Of a stretch of DNA of 64,000 nt, positions 26,261-51,224 are shown piece by piece. Where the stretch lies: NCBI GenBank assembly GCA_011816565.1, contig GCA_011816565.1_3614.1; one strand, written 5' to 3'. The translations under genes were made by a program, and so were the position numbers. Positions within the stretch are counted from its first letter, which is position 1, and each line of letters begins with the position of its first letter. This DNA is from a phage. Below the pieces are notes generated by a model. The model saw only the letters and a program-made list of their open reading frames with translations. It did no database searches and was not told the DNA's origin.

Positions 26261-26530
26261 ATGTTATACCAGCAATATGAACTTCGTGCAGAAAAAGAGT
26301 TAAATTTTGACAAAGATATTCACAGATATTATTATGGGAAAGTTAGAGGGCAAGCAAGAAAGTGTACTCCAACACTCTTTTATGCCAGCAGACGACTAGC
26401 GCCAGAAGAGGCAACAGCAGAAAGGGTTGCGTACAACTGGAGAGTCACGTATGATATTGACAGATTCGATGTGATATCTGTTTTGGAAAACTTTGAAAAC
26501 ACTTACACACAAGTAGAGGACTTTTACTAA
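26261..26530 (+). CDS. hypothetical protein
   Basis: 89 aa; stop overlaps start of the AAA+ gene (TAATG). Confidence 0.45.
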   Translation: MLYQQYELRAEKELNFDKDIHRYYYGKVRGQARKCTPTLFYASRRLAPEEATAERVAYNWRVTYDIDRFDVISVLENFENTYTQVEDFY

Positions 26531-27714
26531 TGTCAAGAAACGTATTCGAAAGTGGTCAAATCACTGTCCGTGAGTTGCCAGCTATTATTCAGTTTGCCCA
26601 ACGTCATAGCCGATCTGTCCTAATTTTGGGACCAATGGGTGTGGGTAAAAGCCAGGTGATGAAGCAGATCGCTGATAATATGTTCGGTGAGCGAGATGAC
26701 AACCTTGTTGACGTGCGACTGTCAGATAAAGATCCTGCCGACTTATCTGGGCTACCTATCCCTGTAGAAGCGGATGGAACTACACGTACAGTGTTTGCAA
26801 TTCCAGAATTTTGGCCTGCGGATCCTGACTGGAGCGGAATTATCTTTCTGGATGAGCTCACTCATGCAGATAACTACCTGCAAAAGGTTGCAATGCAAAT
26901 TATGCTTGACCACAAGTGCGGCACCTATGCATTCCCTAAGGGTTCTGTTTTTGTGGCTGCGGGTAACCGTTCTACAGATGGTGCGGTTCTTTCGGCGCTC
27001 GAAGCCCCTCTGGCTAACCGTTTTATCATTGTAGAGGTTACAAGCAATGCAGAGGTGTTTATTGAGGACTACGCATTCCTTAATGGGGTGCACTCCTCTG
27101 TAATTGGATATCTGAAAAGAGTTCCATCAGCTATCGATAATTATGAGGCCATGGCTGAGATTAATTGTCCATCTTTTGCCACACCGCGATCTTGGGTTGC
27201 TGCATCTGATATCTTGCACGATTTTGACAGCGGTATTATTTCTGACGCTATGGCCCGTGTTCTTCTGCAAGGTGCTATTGGTCACACTGCAGCGGTAGAG
27301 ATCTGGACATACCACACCAAGAAACGCAATTTACCGGAAATCGGTCGGATTATGGCAGGTGGCTGCAAAGAATACGTAGGCCCTAAGCAGCCAGACATTT
27401 TGTGGATTCTTGGATCTGAAGGTTGTATCGCTATTCGTAATATGATGGAAAATGCAAGTATCTCCGACGAAGATCTTGTTAGCTGTGTGGCAAACTTCCT
27501 CGATTTCCTTTGGGAAAACTTCAAGGACGAGAACCGAGATTTTGTATTCTCAGTCTTTATGGCGATGATGAAACCTAATGCCTTAGGAAATGCCTTGCTT
27601 ATCGGTAAAGGTCGTGACAAGATTGTTGCTCAGCTGATCAAAGCATACCCAAACCTGATGAAGATTGTAAAAGAGTTTGGTGAAGAGTTTAGCGCCATTT
27701 TGGCTAAAGCTTAA
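26530..27714 (+). CDS. MoxR-like AAA+ ATPase
   Basis: Walker A (GPMGVGKS), Walker B (IIFLDELTHA), length and layout of the MoxR/AAA_5 class. Confidence 0.6.
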   Translation: MSRNVFESGQITVRELPAIIQFAQRHSRSVLILGPMGVGKSQVMKQIADNMFGERDDNLVDVRLSDKDPADLSGLPIPVEADGTTRTVFAIPEFWPADPDWSGIIFLDELTHADNYLQKVAMQIMLDHKCGTYAFPKGSVFVAAGNRSTDGAVLSALEAPLANRFIIVEVTSNAEVFIEDYAFLNGVHSSVIGYLKRVPSAIDNYEAMAEINCPSFATPRSWVAASDILHDFDSGIISDAMARVLLQGAIGHTAAVEIWTYHTKKRNLPEIGRIMAGGCKEYVGPKQPDILWILGSEGCIAIRNMMENASISDEDLVSCVANFLDFLWENFKDENRDFVFSVFMAMMKPNALGNALLIGKGRDKIVAQLIKAYPNLMKIVKEFGEEFSAILAKA

Positions 27715-27723
27715 GGAGGTTGT

Positions 27724-28104
27724 ATGGCTAAAGTAGGTAAGCGGGGAAACTACCTGGTGGTATTGACCGAGGAGCCGGAGAAGGAGTACGAATGCAGCTC
27801 CACTTGCGTGATCGATATCCGAGAAAAAGATGTAGATGAAATCTGGTTTAAAATATTGGACGCTTGCGATAGCAGTGATTATTTCTTCATCTATGTCAAC
27901 GATAAGGCTGGGTTCTTCCATGACGACGGAGAGTTGCCGTATGAAATCTATGAACTTGTAGAGGCTTGCCATCGTGGAGATGCGGAGTTGTTTGGCTTAC
28001 GGCTGAAAAGCGGTAAATTCTTCTATCAAGATGAGTGCATGAATCTTCATAACTTTGTAGAGGGAACTTGCAACGATGGAGAGATTTTGGCACACTACGA
28101 TTAA
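27724..28104 (+). CDS. hypothetical protein
   Basis: 126 aa with RBS (AAGGAGG); followed by terminator. Confidence 0.45.
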   Translation: MAKVGKRGNYLVVLTEEPEKEYECSSTCVIDIREKDVDEIWFKILDACDSSDYFFIYVNDKAGFFHDDGELPYEIYELVEACHRGDAELFGLRLKSGKFFYQDECMNLHNFVEGTCNDGEILAHYD

Positions 28105-28116
28105 TTTCTAATACCA

Positions 28117-28143
28117 CCCCGCTTCGGCGGGGATTTTCTATTT
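28117..28143 (+). terminator. rho-independent terminator
   Basis: CCCCGC-TTCG-GCGGGG hairpin (identical stem-loop to 1765-1780) followed by ATTTTCTATTT. Confidence 0.6.
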
Positions 28144-28152
28144 GGAGTTATT

Positions 28153-28653
28153 GTGAAAATTAAGATCTTTGCTATTATTTTGAGCGCATTTTTATCGCTG
28201 CCTGTTGTTGCAGCACCAAAACAAAAAGTATATCATACTTGCAAGCCCTCAGATACTAAGGAAAACATTTTGGCATGTAATATCTACAGGGAAGCTAGAG
28301 GGGATGGCACGATGGGTATGCTGGCATCTGGGTTTGCCACATTAAACAGGAAATCTCACCCTAAATACCCAGACACTATAAGAAAGATTGTCTACCAACC
28401 TAACCAGTTTTCGTGGACAAACCACGGCAAAACTTTTAAGGTGACAGAAAAAGATTCATGGGATCACGCTAAAAGTCTTGCAAAGATGCTTCTAAAGGTC
28501 TATAATAACAACCATGTTGCATACATGGCTATGGATATAACAGGTGGAGCAACACACTACCATACAACCAAAGTACGACCGAAATGGGCAAAAAAGATGC
28601 AGAGGACAGCTCAATTCGGGAGCCATATCTACTACAAGGAGCGCAATAAATGA
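28153..28653 (+). CDS. secreted SleB/CwlJ-like cell wall hydrolase
   Basis: GTG start; N-terminal signal peptide (MKIKIFAIILSAFLSLPVVAA); Hydrolase_2 family signature (NIYREARGDG...GM...NR...IVYQPNQF). Confidence 0.55.
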   Translation: MKIKIFAIILSAFLSLPVVAAPKQKVYHTCKPSDTKENILACNIYREARGDGTMGMLASGFATLNRKSHPKYPDTIRKIVYQPNQFSWTNHGKTFKVTEKDSWDHAKSLAKMLLKVYNNNHVAYMAMDITGGATHYHTTKVRPKWAKKMQRTAQFGSHIYYKERNK

Positions 28654-30632
28654 TTGTAAACAGTAATGAAACTAAAGCAGTGCTAACCGGAAATATGGAG
28701 GTCACCAGGGGCTCAATTTCTCTGAACAAAGAGACTTTTGGGCTAATCATTAAAGGGATTTACGAAGATAAGGTGCTGGCAAGCTGCCGTGAACCAATCT
28801 TCAACGCTGTAGACTCCCATGTTGAGTCTGGACGGGGTGATGTACCGATCATCATTCACTCTCCTACAGACCTTGAACCATACTTCTTTGTGCAGGACGT
28901 TGGATTGGGCATGTCAGAAGAGATGGTCCGCAACACGTTCATGAACCTTGGAGAGTCAACCAAGCGCAACAGTAACGCTCTGGTAGGTAATAAAGGTGTT
29001 GGTTCAAAGGCTCCGTTCAGCATGGTGGACACTTTCGATGTTATCAGTGTGCACAATGGTGTTGAAAGCACATATCTATTGTTCTTGGATCAGGGTATCC
29101 CAAACGTTACCAAGATCCGCGAGCGGAAGACTGAAGAGCACAACGGGGTAAAAGTTCAGTTTCATGTTAAGAAAGAGCATGTCCTGAAATATCGCACTGC
29201 TATTGCATCGTGCTTACGCTATGCGAAGTTTCCGTTCACCGTCACCGATCCCATGACCAGTAAGATGTTAGAAGGTGACAAGGTTGAGGCACAGTATCAT
29301 TACGAGAAGGATGGCTGGAAAATGACCATCCTGAAAGGTTATACCAGTTCTGATGAGAGCCGTGTTGTGATGGGTCACCAACCTTACCGCTCTAAGTTCC
29401 TGGAGACATTGACCGATTACCCTGCAATCTGCGTGGAAATTCCTATCGGGGATTGCAATATTAACCCTGGGCGTGAATGGACCATTGAGGGCCATGACGA
29501 CGGTGGATTCCAGGATCGCCTGGAGGCCTTTGTTAAAGAAGGTATACGTCTTCGCGGGGCAGAAGTTGTTGCAGAACTGGAGACGGCAAAAACCTCAGCA
29601 GAAGCACGTGAAATGATGAAGAATAGTGGGGTGTTCGGACACATCTTCGGCAAAAACTTTATGTGGAACCGTTGGGAAGAAACAGGGCTTGGCGACTTAG
29701 GCGATTGTGAAATTTTCGCTGGCGGCTTAAATAAAGGCCGCATAGGCTATGCTCGTTACGGAAAGTCGGAGTTCTTACGAGGTGTATACCTTGTATTTAA
29801 CGACGGAGACGGCAAATATAACCGAAATAAGTGTAACTACTTAAGCGAGATCACCGGACGCAACGTTTTCTATTGCCGTAACACGGATCTGGTGGAAGAG
29901 TTTAAAGAAGCGGCACACCACCCGTTCTTTGCAGATACGGTCAAATTGTTATCAGAGCTCCCTCGCCGACCTGCGAAGAAAGGTGAAACAAAAACTCATT
30001 ACGAGCCAGGTTATTGGGTTAAAAAGCTTGAGAAGGATGGTTACTTCCGTCGTGAACGTATTACTAAGGCAGAGTTCAAGAAGATTAAGCACTGCATTCC
30101 TTATGAGGGTGATATCCAACGTGGAAGTTGTTGGCTGGGACAGCTGAGTAACATCTACCAGCAAAATTATGACCGTGTGCGTGCGGCACTCCAGATTCCT
30201 GAAGGGGAAGACCTGTACCTGGTATCAGAATCCCGTCTGCTTTGGACTAATCCTGATTGCCAGTATGTTACAGAGAAAAATGTGGAACATTTGTTGAAAG
30301 AGGACGCCTGGAAATTCTTACTGACTCGCGCAGCAAATGAAACTTCATATGACAGCCTGTATAGACAATTAGGGAAAATTATCCCCATGCAGGATTTTGG
30401 AAATTATCGGCCACATTTCCACAAGTGGGAAGGTAACACCGCGTGGAAGCACAGTGAGCTAAATCATCGTGCCAAAATCTTAATCGCCAACCGGGTTAAG
30501 TGCGGGAAGGCCTATATTGCAAGATTGGAAAAGAAATATCCACTTTTGAAGCATGTGGGCTTGAAATATTGGGACACTCCTGCTATGATTGAATACCGTG
30601 AACTGATCGATACAAAGAATAACATCAAATAA
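28650..30632 (+). CDS. rIIA: rIIA-like protein (GHKL/Bergerat-fold ATPase domain)
   Basis: N-box (EPIFNAVDSH), D-x-G-x-G (DVGLGM) and G2 box (GNKGVGSKAPFSMVDTF) match the ATPase domain of T4 rIIA as recalled; followed by an rIIB-like gene. No TOPRIM, so not a topoisomerase subunit. Confidence 0.55.
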   Translation: MIVNSNETKAVLTGNMEVTRGSISLNKETFGLIIKGIYEDKVLASCREPIFNAVDSHVESGRGDVPIIIHSPTDLEPYFFVQDVGLGMSEEMVRNTFMNLGESTKRNSNALVGNKGVGSKAPFSMVDTFDVISVHNGVESTYLLFLDQGIPNVTKIRERKTEEHNGVKVQFHVKKEHVLKYRTAIASCLRYAKFPFTVTDPMTSKMLEGDKVEAQYHYEKDGWKMTILKGYTSSDESRVVMGHQPYRSKFLETLTDYPAICVEIPIGDCNINPGREWTIEGHDDGGFQDRLEAFVKEGIRLRGAEVVAELETAKTSAEAREMMKNSGVFGHIFGKNFMWNRWEETGLGDLGDCEIFAGGLNKGRIGYARYGKSEFLRGVYLVFNDGDGKYNRNKCNYLSEITGRNVFYCRNTDLVEEFKEAAHHPFFADTVKLLSELPRRPAKKGETKTHYEPGYWVKKLEKDGYFRRERITKAEFKKIKHCIPYEGDIQRGSCWLGQLSNIYQQNYDRVRAALQIPEGEDLYLVSESRLLWTNPDCQYVTEKNVEHLLKEDAWKFLLTRAANETSYDSLYRQLGKIIPMQDFGNYRPHFHKWEGNTAWKHSELNHRAKILIANRVKCGKAYIARLEKKYPLLKHVGLKYWDTPAMIEYRELIDTKNNIK

Positions 30633-30642
30633 GGAGACCAAG

Positions 30643-31848
30643 ATGATTTTCATCTACGAACATTTCAAAACTCGTAAAGAAGCACGTGACCGCCGTGCAG
30701 AACTTGAGAAGAAGGGTTTCACATGTGCCATTGAGAAAGGCGACACAACCTGGACACTGGCAGTTGGTGCCCCAGAGTTGTTCGATCCTGACCGTGACAG
30801 CGTCTGCTACACCCGTGAGGATTTTGAAACCCGTGAAGAGGCCCGTTTATTTAGATATGGGCTGGAAGATAACGGTAAGTACGCCATGATCTTAGACTTA
30901 GGCGAAGGTTCCGTTAAACGTTGGGGCGTGGTATACCCACTGTGTGTTGTTCACGGTGTGGGGTTTACTGGGGTAGCAATCAAGTCAGAAGAACCTTTAG
31001 TAGAAGTCAAAGATCCGGTGCTGGAAGTGGTGAGCAGTGTGTCTCAGCAACAGACTCGAAGCATCGAGCCTTTGGTAGTTATTTGCGGGGAACTCCTCCA
31101 GATCACCTGCAACGAAGGAATTTTTGAAATTCGCCGCAGCGAAAGTGAGGAAGTTTACCAGAAAGTCTTCGACCATATCTCTGTTCAGGAATATGATGAG
31201 GCAATTGGTGAAATCCTTGTCTGGCTGGAACGCAAGAGTGAGTTCACCACACTTGCAGACAACCTGATCATGAAAGATGGTAAGCTCTACTACTACGGTG
31301 TAGAGATGCGATCCACCATTGCAAAGAAAATTGAGAAAGATTATGCAGACGGAACGCTGGATGACCGCTATGTGAAATTCCTCGTTCGCCTGCTACGCAA
31401 TCCTTCTGCAAAATCTGTAAACATGCTCTACGATTTTATGCAGGCCAATGATATTCAGATTGCAGAAGATGGTCGAATCATTTGCTACAAAGGGGTTCAG
31501 TTTAACGGCAGCAAGTGGGTGGATTGGCACAGTGGTAAAGTCCCACAATACCAAGGTGCTTTTGTATCCATGCCTCGTAACTTTGTAGAGGATGATCCTG
31601 AAGCTGCGTGCTCCTATGGCTTACACTGCGCCAGCAAAGAGTATGCAAAGAGCTACGGCACTGTAATGACTGTCATGGTTGACCCTGCAGATGTAGTTAG
31701 TGTGCCATATCAACACAATAGCGCTAAGTGCCGTGCATGCCGCTATGAGATTGTGGTAGCTCCGGAAGCACGCAAAGATGGAGACCCTATTGAATATGTA
31801 GTTGATCGTGACGGTAACACTATCGACATTCTTTACGAGGAGGCGTAA
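30643..31848 (+). CDS. rIIB: rIIB-like protein
   Basis: 401 aa directly downstream of rIIA-like gene; segment FLVRLLRNPSAKSVNMLYDFMQANDIQIAEDG resembles the conserved rIIB core (from memory). Confidence 0.5.
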   Translation: MIFIYEHFKTRKEARDRRAELEKKGFTCAIEKGDTTWTLAVGAPELFDPDRDSVCYTREDFETREEARLFRYGLEDNGKYAMILDLGEGSVKRWGVVYPLCVVHGVGFTGVAIKSEEPLVEVKDPVLEVVSSVSQQQTRSIEPLVVICGELLQITCNEGIFEIRRSESEEVYQKVFDHISVQEYDEAIGEILVWLERKSEFTTLADNLIMKDGKLYYYGVEMRSTIAKKIEKDYADGTLDDRYVKFLVRLLRNPSAKSVNMLYDFMQANDIQIAEDGRIICYKGVQFNGSKWVDWHSGKVPQYQGAFVSMPRNFVEDDPEAACSYGLHCASKEYAKSYGTVMTVMVDPADVVSVPYQHNSAKCRACRYEIVVAPEARKDGDPIEYVVDRDGNTIDILYEEA

Positions 31849-33218
31849 TGGAAAAAGGGCAGTATGATGTAGGCACAGATGCTGCCCTCGTTGCAATCAT
31901 GAGCGGTGAGAATGTCTTCGTTTCAGGACCTGCAGGTTGTGGGAAGACGTATCTCATCAACATGATCCAGTCAATGTATGGAGACTCTTGCATAACGGTT
32001 GCCCCGACAGGGGTAGCCGCTTTAAACGTTAATGGAGCAACAGCACACCGAACCTTCGATCTTGCAGCAGGTGTGAGCATGGAGTCAGACTGGACCGCAA
32101 TAAGGGCAAAAACAGCAAAGCCTTTGAAAAGCAAGGCATTTACCATCCTAATTATCGATGAAATCTCTATGATCCGTGCTGATAAGTTTATAGAGATGGA
32201 TAGGAAACTTCGCTTCCTTCGAAAAAATGACAAACCTTTCGGAGGCATACAGGTCATATTGTTTGGCGATTTTTACCAGGCACCTCCTGTTGTCTCTTCT
32301 ATGGAGAAGGAGGCCTACTTCAACTTCTACCACACAGACCTATGTTGCTATACCGAATCTTGGAAAGAGCTGGACCTTCACAACATAGCCCTAATAGACC
32401 AGTTCCGACAGGAGTCTATTCGATTTGCCACAATGCTCAACTGTGTTCGTGAGGGTCGTCGCATAAAAGAGGTTGTAGCAGAACTTAATGCTCGCTGTTA
32501 CAAAGGCGGTGTACCAACAGACGCTCTCACAATTTGCGCCACCAACAAACAAGCAGAGGAAGTGAACAGAAGGTTCTATGATGCCATCAACGCCCCAGAG
32601 AAGGTATACACTGGTGAAATGAAGGGTAAGTTTCCCTCCACCCTGCCAGTTGAGCAGGAGATGAAGTTGAAAATTGGCATGAAAGTTATGATAACCGCCA
32701 ACGATGTTGACCCGACGCACAAAGTACCTTATTATGTTAACGGAACACGTGCCACAATTGTTAAATTTAAGAACAAGGCGGTGGTGGTAGAGCTTGAAGA
32801 TGGAACACAGGTTGACATAGAGCAGAGGTTGTGGGAAAATAACGAGTATAAGCCATCTCAGAGATACAACATTGCAGAAAGGAAGATGGAGAAGTTTATA
32901 GAGAGGGTAGTGATTGGGTCATACAGGCAACTCCCTCTGAAATCTGGGTATGCCGTAACATCTCATAAAAGTCAAGGACTTACGCTAGATTGTTACAACC
33001 TGGACCTTGGAAAGAACGGAGCTTTCTCTCCTGGGATGACGTATGTTGCTTTGAGTCGGGTTAAGACAATACAAGGAATAAACTTGTTGCGTCCACTAAG
33101 AGAAGTTGACATTATTGTTGACCCGCGAGTCGTAGAGTTTTACAATACAACATTCCCTGACTTAGACAAAATTGTCAGGAAAGATTTTGAAACCAGAGCC
33201 GAAGAGGGGGACGTATGA
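31848..33218 (+). CDS. dda: Dda-like SF1B DNA helicase
   Basis: Walker A (GPAGCGKT), motif Ia (APTGVAA), Walker B (ILIIDEISM), GDFYQAPPV, motif V/VI (YAVTSHKSQGLT; YVALSRVK). Confidence 0.65.
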   Translation: MEKGQYDVGTDAALVAIMSGENVFVSGPAGCGKTYLINMIQSMYGDSCITVAPTGVAALNVNGATAHRTFDLAAGVSMESDWTAIRAKTAKPLKSKAFTILIIDEISMIRADKFIEMDRKLRFLRKNDKPFGGIQVILFGDFYQAPPVVSSMEKEAYFNFYHTDLCCYTESWKELDLHNIALIDQFRQESIRFATMLNCVREGRRIKEVVAELNARCYKGGVPTDALTICATNKQAEEVNRRFYDAINAPEKVYTGEMKGKFPSTLPVEQEMKLKIGMKVMITANDVDPTHKVPYYVNGTRATIVKFKNKAVVVELEDGTQVDIEQRLWENNEYKPSQRYNIAERKMEKFIERVVIGSYRQLPLKSGYAVTSHKSQGLTLDCYNLDLGKNGAFSPGMTYVALSRVKTIQGINLLRPLREVDIIVDPRVVEFYNTTFPDLDKIVRKDFETRAEEGDV

Positions 33219-50705: not shown

Positions 50706-50895
50706 GCTTAAATCTGCATGGAACATCGCTGTGGGGGACGAGATCCGTATCCCAGGTGGAAAGACCATTATGAAGATATCTCGTATTGAGTACGAAGGTG
50801 ACCGTGTATTCCACATCTTCGCAGAAGGTGGTCGAGAAATTTATATACAGGCAGGTTCTCACATCTATATCCGTAAGAAAGGGGACGACAAATGA
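50692..50895 (+). CDS. hypothetical small protein
   Basis: 67 aa; overlaps neighbours. Confidence 0.4.
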   Translation: MQMFKLKSAWNIAVGDEIRIPGGKTIMKISRIEYEGDRVFHIFAEGGREIYIQAGSHIYIRKKGDDK

Positions 50896-51224
50896 CAGAG
50901 ATCATCGTTTCAACTGCAGGGTATGTATTCCTGACAATCATTGCGCTGGCTATTCTGGTGGCGGTGTATGGATTTGTTATCCTGCCTATTCTTGAGACAT
51001 TTAGTTTGTGTCGGTGTTGGAGAAAAGCTTACGGACCACAACCGTGGAAAGACTGGTTCCATTTGGTGCGTATAGCGTTCTCTTATGCCTATGACCACTC
51101 TAGCAGTGCATGCGTAACCGGGTACCATGCCTACAACTGGAACTGGGAAGGGCTGGGGAGATGGACTGTTACAAAAACTATACCCTTACGGTTGTACAAA
51201 GGAAAGAACACACTGGGAGCCTGA
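50892..51224 (+). CDS. predicted membrane protein
   Basis: 110 aa with N-terminal hydrophobic segments (YVFLTIIALAILVAVYGFVILPIL). Confidence 0.45.
   Translation: MTEIIVSTAGYVFLTIIALAILVAVYGFVILPILETFSLCRCWRKAYGPQPWKDWFHLVRIAFSYAYDHSSSACVTGYHAYNWNWEGLGRWTVTKTIPLRLYKGKNTLGA

Follow-up and report, generated by a model that had tools for sequence, protein, structure and literature searches.

The 64,000-nucleotide stretch of phage DNA analysed here (contig GCA_011816565.1_3614.1 of assembly GCA_011816565.1, called the window below) contains, as three consecutive open reading frames (ORFs) on the + strand, a gene for a SleB/CwlJ-family cell wall hydrolase with a predicted signal peptide, followed by homologues of the T4 genes rIIA and rIIB (Table 1). 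We read the hydrolase as an accessory, weakly expressed exported enzyme, which would supplement holin-endolysin lysis, and its position next to the rII pair as inherited gene order (probability of about 0.78 for this reading as a whole). It is not the endolysin of the phage; a lambda-R-type endolysin is encoded elsewhere. A preliminary description of this DNA, made from the letters alone, had correctly located the three genes and named them as a hydrolase with a cleavable signal peptide and the Hydrolase_2 signature, an rIIA with GHKL ATPase motifs and an rIIB, but its further suggestions, that the trio forms a linked lysis or lysis-inhibition module or that the hydrolase is a holin-independent endolysin, do not hold up against the evidence below.

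The 4.3-kb region bearing the trio has 99.7% identity with Escherichia phages DrSchubert and RudolfGeigy and 97–99% with about 100 further Vequintavirus (rV5-like) genomes; judged by this identity, the window belongs to an rV5-like E. coli phage of that genus. The locus aligns as the Vequintavirus orthologue of rV5 genes 2, 1 and 238, which the rV5 genome paper (2013, Table S3) lists as a cell wall hydrolase of 166 residues with PF07486, rIIA of 660 residues and rIIB of 401 residues. Deposited annotations of relatives, DrSchubert among them, read ‘putative cell wall hydrolase (SleB)’, ‘membrane integrity protector rIIA’ and ‘rIIB’, and the rIIA label is carried by the gene in rV5, DrSchubert and navn. 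The gene identities and names, the signal peptide and the dispensability of the trio were already known, and the locus has little weight as a discovery. The useful outcome is a negative one: the labels ‘endolysin’ (used by PHROG 938 and in numerous GenBank records) and ‘lysis inhibitor’ suggest a lysis module here, a reading against which comparative genomics and transposon data argue.

Which enzyme then lyses the host? The lysin of rV5 described in the literature is Gp89, a lambda-R-like protein of the Phage_lysozyme family, and LysECP26, 98% identical to it, has been purified and lyses Gram-negative cells with a permeabilised outer membrane. The ‘lysozyme R’ endolysin gene adjoins DNA ligase in phage PMBT16, about 68 kb from rIIA, and falls outside the window. 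Essentiality was mapped by transposon sequencing in Bas54 (phage MaxBurger), whose locus is 97.4% identical to the window with the same gene order; these are data of the HIDEN-SEQ preprint (10.1101/2025.11.20.689424). In these data the lambda-R-type endolysin bas54_0202 has 0 reads at 24 TA dinucleotide sites and the i-spanin and o-spanin likewise have 0 reads, whereas the SleB-like gene bas54_0065 is disrupted at 32 of its 36 sites (mean 916 reads) and is classed as Non-essential, as are rIIA (90/101 sites disrupted) and rIIB (56/59). In the clinical isolate CFE311 the trio is not significantly depleted (log2 fold change −0.88, p=0.50 for the hydrolase; same source). Since insertions in the SleB-like gene are tolerated and none are found in the endolysin or spanin genes, the SleB-like gene neither replaces the endolysin nor is needed for plaque formation.

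The identity of the hydrolase itself is clear. It matches Pfam Hydrolase_2 (PF07486) with E=2.1e-19 and 70.4 bits (gathering score 27) over profile positions 2–100 of 100, matches PHROG 938 ‘endolysin’ with E=1.7e-27, and contains the motif REARGDG...NR...IVYQPNQF. Phmmer aligns it to the SleB structures 4f55 and 4fet, catalytic domains from B. cereus and B. anthracis, with E=2.5e-6 and 1.8e-5, and these two domains are also the sole significant matches in the Protein Data Bank (PDB) found by Foldseek (target-normalised template modelling score 0.72–0.79, probability 1.00) for the AlphaFold2 model, which has a predicted local distance difference test (pLDDT) score of 88.2. Residues Y45, E47, R66, Q85, F86, S87, D128, T130, G132, W145 and Y161 are invariant among relatives, and H158 is nearly so. 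The catalytic groove of B. subtilis SleB is formed by E203, R222, Y278 and H301 (PMC13556211); their counterparts in the phage protein are Glu47, Arg66, Tyr136, which aligns to the SleB tyrosine, and His158, and the spacing from glutamate to arginine is 19 residues in both proteins. Just ahead of the catalytic glutamate lies a Cys30/Cys42 pair, which is kept in Vequintavirinae and Stephanstirmvirinae, not in Bacillus SleB, and which probably forms a stabilising disulfide in the periplasm. A Pfam scan revealed no second domain and no PG_binding_1 in the hydrolase, and the adjoining 126-residue protein belongs to no Pfam family. Because it is single-domain, without PG_binding_1 or a YpeB (PepSY) partner, the hydrolase is a member of the domain family and not an orthologue of SleB.

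The N-terminus, MKIKIFAIILSAFLSLPVVA followed by AP, has a positive n-region (MKIK), a core (IFAIILSAFLSLPVV) and a cleavage site, VVA/AP, with no lipobox cysteine. The core comprises 15 hydrophobic residues with a Kyte-Doolittle hydropathy of 2.0–2.3 over 19 residues, and V-V-A fits the −3/−1 rule. The signal peptide was called by this rule together with the conservation of n-, h- and c-region features in five divergent lineages, Seunavirus, Certrevirus, Justusliebigvirus, Phapecoctavirus and T5-like phages, where the sequences have diverged and the architecture is the same, ending in VLA, ALA, VVA, VMA or SQA. An architecture conserved despite such divergence is, on the alignments, the pattern expected from selection for export, and Sec export with signal cleavage can be predicted for the hydrolase. 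By a crude heuristic, about 72 of 80 homologues from IMG/VR also have an export-like hydrophobic N-terminal segment. The segment in the window is not of the signal-anchor-release (SAR) type, as its core is rich in Ile, Phe and Leu, its best 10-residue hydropathy is 2.95 and a VVA/A site is present; many IMG/VR Hydrolase_2 homologues have SAR-like N-termini rich in Gly, Ala, Ser and Thr.

Several features point to low-level expression outside the late phase. According to the rV5 genome paper (2013), genes 10-1-238-164 form a transcription unit of their own, apart from the late genes 27-66. Between the stop codon of the 126-residue gene (28102–28104) and the ribosome-binding site of the hydrolase, a terminator scan found a hairpin with 6/6 G-C stem pairs, a four-nucleotide UUCG loop and a T-run after it. 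The folded RNA of 28095–28165 has an energy of −19.9 kcal/mol (z=−2.86), and its minimum-free-energy structure contains an outer stem that also takes up the GGAG and the GUG start codon in base pairs. This outer stem (28096–28155) is rich in AU and GU pairs and joins the stop region of the upstream gene to the GGAG and GUG of the hydrolase; if formed, it could gate translation of a toxic product or tie it to termination of the preceding ORF. The relatives at hand are all too similar to show any covariation in it. The start codon is GTG or TTG in 4/5 lineages, Seunavirus phage SPLA5a has a different hairpin and T-run at the corresponding position, and the Justusliebigvirus and Phapecoctavirus (Stephanstirmvirinae) homologues have a terminator followed by their own sigma-70-type promoter (TTGCAA-17-TACAAT or TATACT) and a TTG start (L008, 3794–4500; L009, 1–4482). 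In the window, a sigma-70 promoter scan between the upstream gene and the GTG gave no convincing match, and the match that the scan reported at 28151–28178 was rejected as a promoter directly upstream of the hydrolase, as it falls inside the ORF. Expression would therefore be low because of the GTG start, the strong upstream hairpin with its T-run and a possibly sequestered ribosome-binding site. The SleB-like protein is kept in all Vequintavirinae genera, has a signal peptide as a family and, for the CB7 homologue, is toxic on expression in E. coli (‘data not shown’; Certrevirus CB7 paper, 2020, PMC7344957), and low-level non-late expression would suit a protein whose overproduction is toxic.

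Taken together, the favoured scheme is as follows. The gene would direct synthesis of a single-domain muralytic preprotein whose Sec signal peptide is cleavable; little of it would be made, and this before the late phase, from a non-late transcription unit that the gene shares with DNA-replication genes. Export and cleavage at VVA/AP would leave a mature enzyme of 146 residues that folds in the periplasm, where its Glu47 groove may cleave glycan strands by the lytic-transglycosylase chemistry attributed to SleB. The physiological benefit may be that of a low-dose accessory factor, which pre-weakens or remodels the sacculus and adds to the action of the spanins and of the essential, holin-dependent endolysin of lambda-R type but could not take their place.

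By profile and pairwise comparison, the two downstream genes are true homologues, indeed orthologues, of the T4 rII pair, with scores far beyond chance. The rIIA protein matches PHROG 612 RIIA over its full length (residues 1–658, E=1.3e-124) and Pfam HATPase_c_3, the GHKL family, at residues 50–147 (E=1.8e-8), and BLASTP aligns its N-terminal 198 residues to T4 rIIA at 28% identity (E=3e-21). The rIIB gene starts 10 bases past the rIIA stop codon; its product matches PHROG 609 RIIB at residues 132–375 (E=1.3e-61) and is 37% identical to T4 rIIB over the C-terminal 204 residues (E=1e-39). The comparison with T4 that the preliminary description had proposed as a check thus bears out both of its rII assignments. 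In T4, rIIA and rIIB are protectors against RexAB-type abortive infection, not parts of the RI/T lysis-inhibition machinery. Protection of the RexAB type by rIIA/rIIB was shown for T4 and Bas37 in the HIDEN-SEQ preprint (10.1101/2025.11.20.689424), and the Vequintavirus pair presumably guards against Rex-type abortive infection in the same way.

Does the neighbourhood of hydrolase and rII genes have a meaning beyond descent? The stop codon of the hydrolase and the start codon of rIIA share the sequence ATGA (28650–28653). Since rIIB and the unrelated helicase gene after it are likewise joined by overlapping stop and start codons, the ATGA overlap is ordinary phage gene packing and not specific evidence for a module. 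Homologue diversity was sampled from a phage collection and from IMG/VR. Of the phage records, 1,337 have a Hydrolase_2 homologue and 2,643 have an rIIA homologue, and among the matches listed a hydrolase adjoining rIIA is found only in Vequintavirus entries. In IMG/VR, rIIA/rIIB lie nearby in 4 of the best 80 hydrolase loci, and a Hydrolase_2 ORF lies within 6 kb of rIIA in 9/54 rIIA loci; all nine belong to one clade, with rIIA at least 39% identical to that of the window. Seunavirus keeps the order hydrolase-rIIA-rIIB-helicase at about 40–50% protein identity. Certrevirus CR3 has the hydrolase, a 62-residue membrane protein with two transmembrane domains (TMDs), a small protein and the helicase, with no rII genes. 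In Justusliebigvirus (phi92-like) and Phapecoctavirus (phAPEC8-like) the exported hydrolase is followed by small soluble proteins and glycosyltransferases, in T5-like and PAK_P3-like phages it is found in other contexts without adjacent rII, and the T4 rIIA/rIIB locus has no hydrolase neighbour. These gene orders argue for a conserved backbone running from the hydrolase to the helicase, whose intervening slot is filled by the rII pair in some lineages and not in others. With an essential endolysin elsewhere and a trio that is dispensable in the laboratory, we read the adjacency as synteny inherited within the Vequintavirus/Seunavirus clade and not as a lysis module.

Four alternative readings were weighed. 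One would make the SleB-like enzyme a real holin-independent, Sec-exported endolysin, as the ‘endolysin’ labels of PHROG 938 and many database records, the signal peptide, the toxicity of the CB7 homologue, the SAR-like homologues of many smaller IMG/VR contigs (where they may be the sole lysin) and the non-essential ‘putative holin’ of Bas54 might suggest; it is largely refuted already by the Bas54 insertion data, by the purified and active canonical endolysin of rV5-like phages and by the placement of the gene in a non-late unit, and we regard it as very improbable. Many phages have a second muralytic enzyme for entry into the host, and a virion-associated lysin for wall penetration could be envisaged on this general ground. 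We give this hardly any credence: a cleavable Sec signal peptide would route the protein into the periplasm of the cell that makes it, away from where virions assemble, and genes for a baseplate spike/tail lysozyme and a tail-cluster ‘cell wall hydrolase protein’ are already present in Vequintaviruses (bas54_0023, bas54_0030). The gene also lies outside the structural block, and the virion proteins of rV5 identified by mass spectrometry do not include gp2 (rV5 genome paper, 2013). The linked module, in which hydrolase, rIIA and rIIB would modulate one another in lysis timing, lysis inhibition or membrane and wall integrity, draws on the ATGA overlap, which would allow translational coupling, on the gene order kept in Seunavirus-type phages and on a weak match of the rIIB N-terminus to the peptidoglycan-binding SPOR family. 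The clade-restricted adjacency, the Certreviruses that retain the hydrolase and have no rII, the separate occurrence of hydrolase and rII genes in the other lineages and in T4, and the features of rIIB itself all count against it, and this too is improbable.

These features of rIIB deserve some detail. The clade-specific N-terminal extension, absent from T4 rIIB in an alignment with the Seunavirus and T4 proteins, consists of two related repeats of about 45 residues each (repeat-to-repeat BLASTP E=1e-4). Repeat 1 alone scores 24.1 bits against Pfam SPOR (gathering score 21), covering profile positions 12–49 of 76 only, and SPOR scans of repeat 2 and of the Seunavirus rIIB N-terminus gave no match. 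We considered and rejected a real SPOR peptidoglycan-binding domain here, given the partial coverage, the repeat and relative without a match and the lack of an export route, and regard the similarity as an unconfirmed resemblance; the predicted fold of repeat 1 is beta-alpha-beta-beta, and a single-sequence AlphaFold2 model of rIIB (pLDDT 37.2) was unusable. Since rIIB has no export signal, its N-terminal tail holds 17 Lys/Arg and the SPOR-like match is absent in Seunavirus, rIIB cannot plausibly reach peptidoglycan. The best surviving alternative to our accessory-enzyme reading, unlikely as it is, is a conditional non-lysis role early in infection, such as murein remodelling suited to the state of host or growth, or action against envelope defences, as would befit an ‘arms-race’ gene. 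It would accord with the non-late unit, with the sigma-70 promoters of the relatives’ homologues, with the retention of the gene in more than 1,300 phage genomes, some of them from lineages that encode a separate endolysin (T5.083, phi92-like, phAPEC8-like), and with flanking genes that are conditionally essential in CFE311 (MoxR ATPase as anti-DS-28 factor, helicase) in the HIDEN-SEQ preprint. Hydrolase insertions are not depleted in CFE311 according to the same source, no defence or host trait is known to be linked to the hydrolase and the proposal is purely inferential. One may further speculate, with considerable doubt, that the non-late exported SleB-like enzymes of rV5-, phi92-, phAPEC8- and T5-like phages form a distinct class of early periplasmic murein remodellers with such a conditional role, and that in rV5-like phages and Seunavirus a hairpin-gated, translationally coupled transcript may co-regulate them with rIIA/rIIB.

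Some points weigh against the favoured interpretation of the hydrolase as an accessory murein enzyme whose neighbours are incidental. SleB proper requires muramic-delta-lactam, and E. coli murein does not contain it, so that the substrate and chemistry given above for the phage enzyme are extrapolated. The ATGA overlap and an order kept between Vequintavirus and Seunavirus at about 40–50% identity are compatible with co-regulation, and the two-TMD neighbour in Certrevirus, proposed as a class II holin (PMC7344957), hints at possible cooperation of the hydrolase with membrane-acting proteins in some lineages. Essentiality is taken from a preprint, for a 97% identical relative studied under laboratory conditions, and these data would leave room for a strong conditional role; toxicity is reported as ‘data not shown’ for a homologue of about 45% identity, and the activity, location and expression of the protein in the window are predicted.

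Table 1. Coordinates of the hydrolase, its upstream signals and the rII genes in the window.
Feature	Position	Strand	Basis or remark
Hydrolase ORF	28153–28653	+	GTG start, 166 residues
Signal peptide, residues 1–20, MKIKIFAIILSAFLSLPVVA, predicted signal peptidase I cleavage after VVA	28153–28212	+	Hydropathy; architecture kept in relatives
Mature SleB/CwlJ-family (Hydrolase_2) catalytic domain, residues 21–166, and stop codon	28213–28653	+	PF07486, SleB structure matches, AlphaFold2, Foldseek
Terminator-like G+C-rich hairpin CCCCGC-TTCG-GCGGGG, then ATTTTCTATTT	28117–28132	+	Terminator scan, RNA fold
Shine-Dalgarno GGAG of hydrolase, five bases before GTG start	28144–28147	+	Read from sequence
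rIIA homologue, 660 residues; start overlaps hydrolase stop as ATGA	28650–30632	+	PHROG 612, HATPase_c_3, BLASTP to T4
N-terminal GHKL ATPase-like domain of rIIA, residues 50–147	28797–29090	+	Pfam HATPase_c_3
rIIB homologue, 401 residues	30643–31848	+	PHROG 609, BLASTP to T4
Conserved C-terminal rIIB domain, residues 132–375	31036–31767	+	PHROG 609
Clade-specific N-terminal rIIB extension, residues 1–94, two related repeats	30643–30924	+	Alignment; BLASTP

The surroundings of the trio were also inspected for a holin or other partner. The coding strand of the window yielded no good candidate for a holin of about 78 residues with two TMDs; the only small ORF of the + strand with two adjacent hydrophobic segments lies at 50892–51224 (110 residues). 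Beside the hydrolase, neither the 126-residue protein nor rIIA has a hydrophobic segment, and rIIB has one borderline segment (residues 95–113) that is not kept in Seunavirus. An antisense ORF of 73 residues (28529–28750) with two hydrophobic stretches was dismissed as a holin-like partner, as it lies opposite coding sequence. In CR3 the 62-residue ORF (L007, 4977–5165) has two strong transmembrane segments, overlaps the SleB-like stop codon and occupies the slot of Vequintavirus rIIA/rIIB. In Bas54 the annotated ‘putative holin’ (a side observation on bas54_0115/bas54_0202 in the preprint data, with orthologues beyond the window) tolerates insertions, with a mean of 430 reads, while the endolysin and spanins are essential; the real holin of rV5-like phages appears to differ from the one annotated. 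The 126-residue upstream protein has homologues only in two Vequintavirus IMG/VR loci and none in other hydrolase loci, and was rejected on this account as a conserved partner or immunity protein. An Rfam scan of the whole window gave no matches.

The genes flanking the trio, a MoxR-like ATPase (26530–27714) and a PIF1/Dda-like helicase (31848–33218), have the orthologues bas54_0063 and bas54_0068, which are strongly depleted in CFE311 (log2 fold change −7.23 and −6.32; 10.1101/2025.11.20.689424); the MoxR ATPase is named there as a counter-defence factor against ‘DS-28’, and the conditional requirement for the helicase goes unmentioned in the passages of the preprint seen. In the Phapecoctavirus record the hydrolase homologue lies downstream of TelA-like and TerD/YceD-like genes of the tellurite-resistance families. 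Two database entries misrepresent the hydrolase gene: in PMBT16 (PP554575.1; L003, 25114–25562) it is annotated as two short hypothetical coding sequences, and in SPLA5a as a truncated ‘endolysin’ without the signal peptide. Both ORFs are intact, with a non-ATG start (GTG or TTG) missed by the annotators; a frameshifted pseudogene, suspected from the two PMBT16 coding sequences, was discarded, the split being an annotation artefact from the missed GTG. At least 16 unannotated public records within MG065644–MG065690 (‘Campylobacter phage’ C7, C9, A112b, A147 and others), labelled as Campylobacter jejuni phages, are 97–99% identical to E. coli Vequintaviruses across the trio locus and are probably mislabelled or contaminant genomes.

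Among known systems, Bacillus SleB (PDB 4F55 and 4FET), a germination-specific cortex-lytic enzyme, has the fold and the Glu/Arg/Tyr/His groove in common with the phage hydrolase, which in contrast has no N-terminal peptidoglycan-binding domain and no YpeB, carries the phage-clade cysteine pair and is only 19–24% identical. Some phage muralytic enzymes are exported by host Sec without a holin, namely the Sec-exported fOg44 Lys44 and the SAR endolysins P1 Lyz and R21 of phage 21, and the hydrolase is predicted to share this route. However, its N-terminus is a strongly hydrophobic, cleavable-type signal with an AXA site and not a SAR anchor, and it is not the essential lysin of its phage. The T5-family ‘cell wall hydrolase SleB’ homologue T5.083 is likewise an exported Hydrolase_2 protein (signal peptide MKAALLLVAALTFSFSSQA, predicted cleavage before S) from a non-structural region of a large virulent phage; it is about 40% identical over the catalytic domain, with a different cysteine pattern and no rII genes nearby. 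A literature search on T5.083 found no papers, and the T5 endolysin, an L-alanyl-D-glutamate peptidase, is distinct from it (PMC7344957). The T4 rIIA/rIIB pair and that of the window share the GHKL-like N-terminal domain of rIIA, the C-terminal domain of rIIB and their adjacent, co-oriented arrangement, and both the T4 and the Vequintavirus (Bas54) pairs are non-essential on a K-12 host; compared with T4, the rIIA of the window is 65 residues shorter, with likeness only at the profile level past the first ~200 residues, and its rIIB has the N-terminal tandem-repeat extension of about 95 residues. The Certrevirus orthologues (Pectobacterium phage CB7_83 and Cronobacter phage CR3 gp087) are about 45% identical to the hydrolase and are followed by the two-TMD membrane protein instead of rIIA/rIIB. 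The closest counterparts are rV5 gp2 and its orthologues (DrSchubert bas50_0066, MaxBurger bas54_0065 and navn_192), all of 166 residues with PF07486 and in the same slot upstream of rIIA; within Vequintavirus the protein is about 98–99% identical, and the hydrolase of the window does not differ materially from rV5 gp2.

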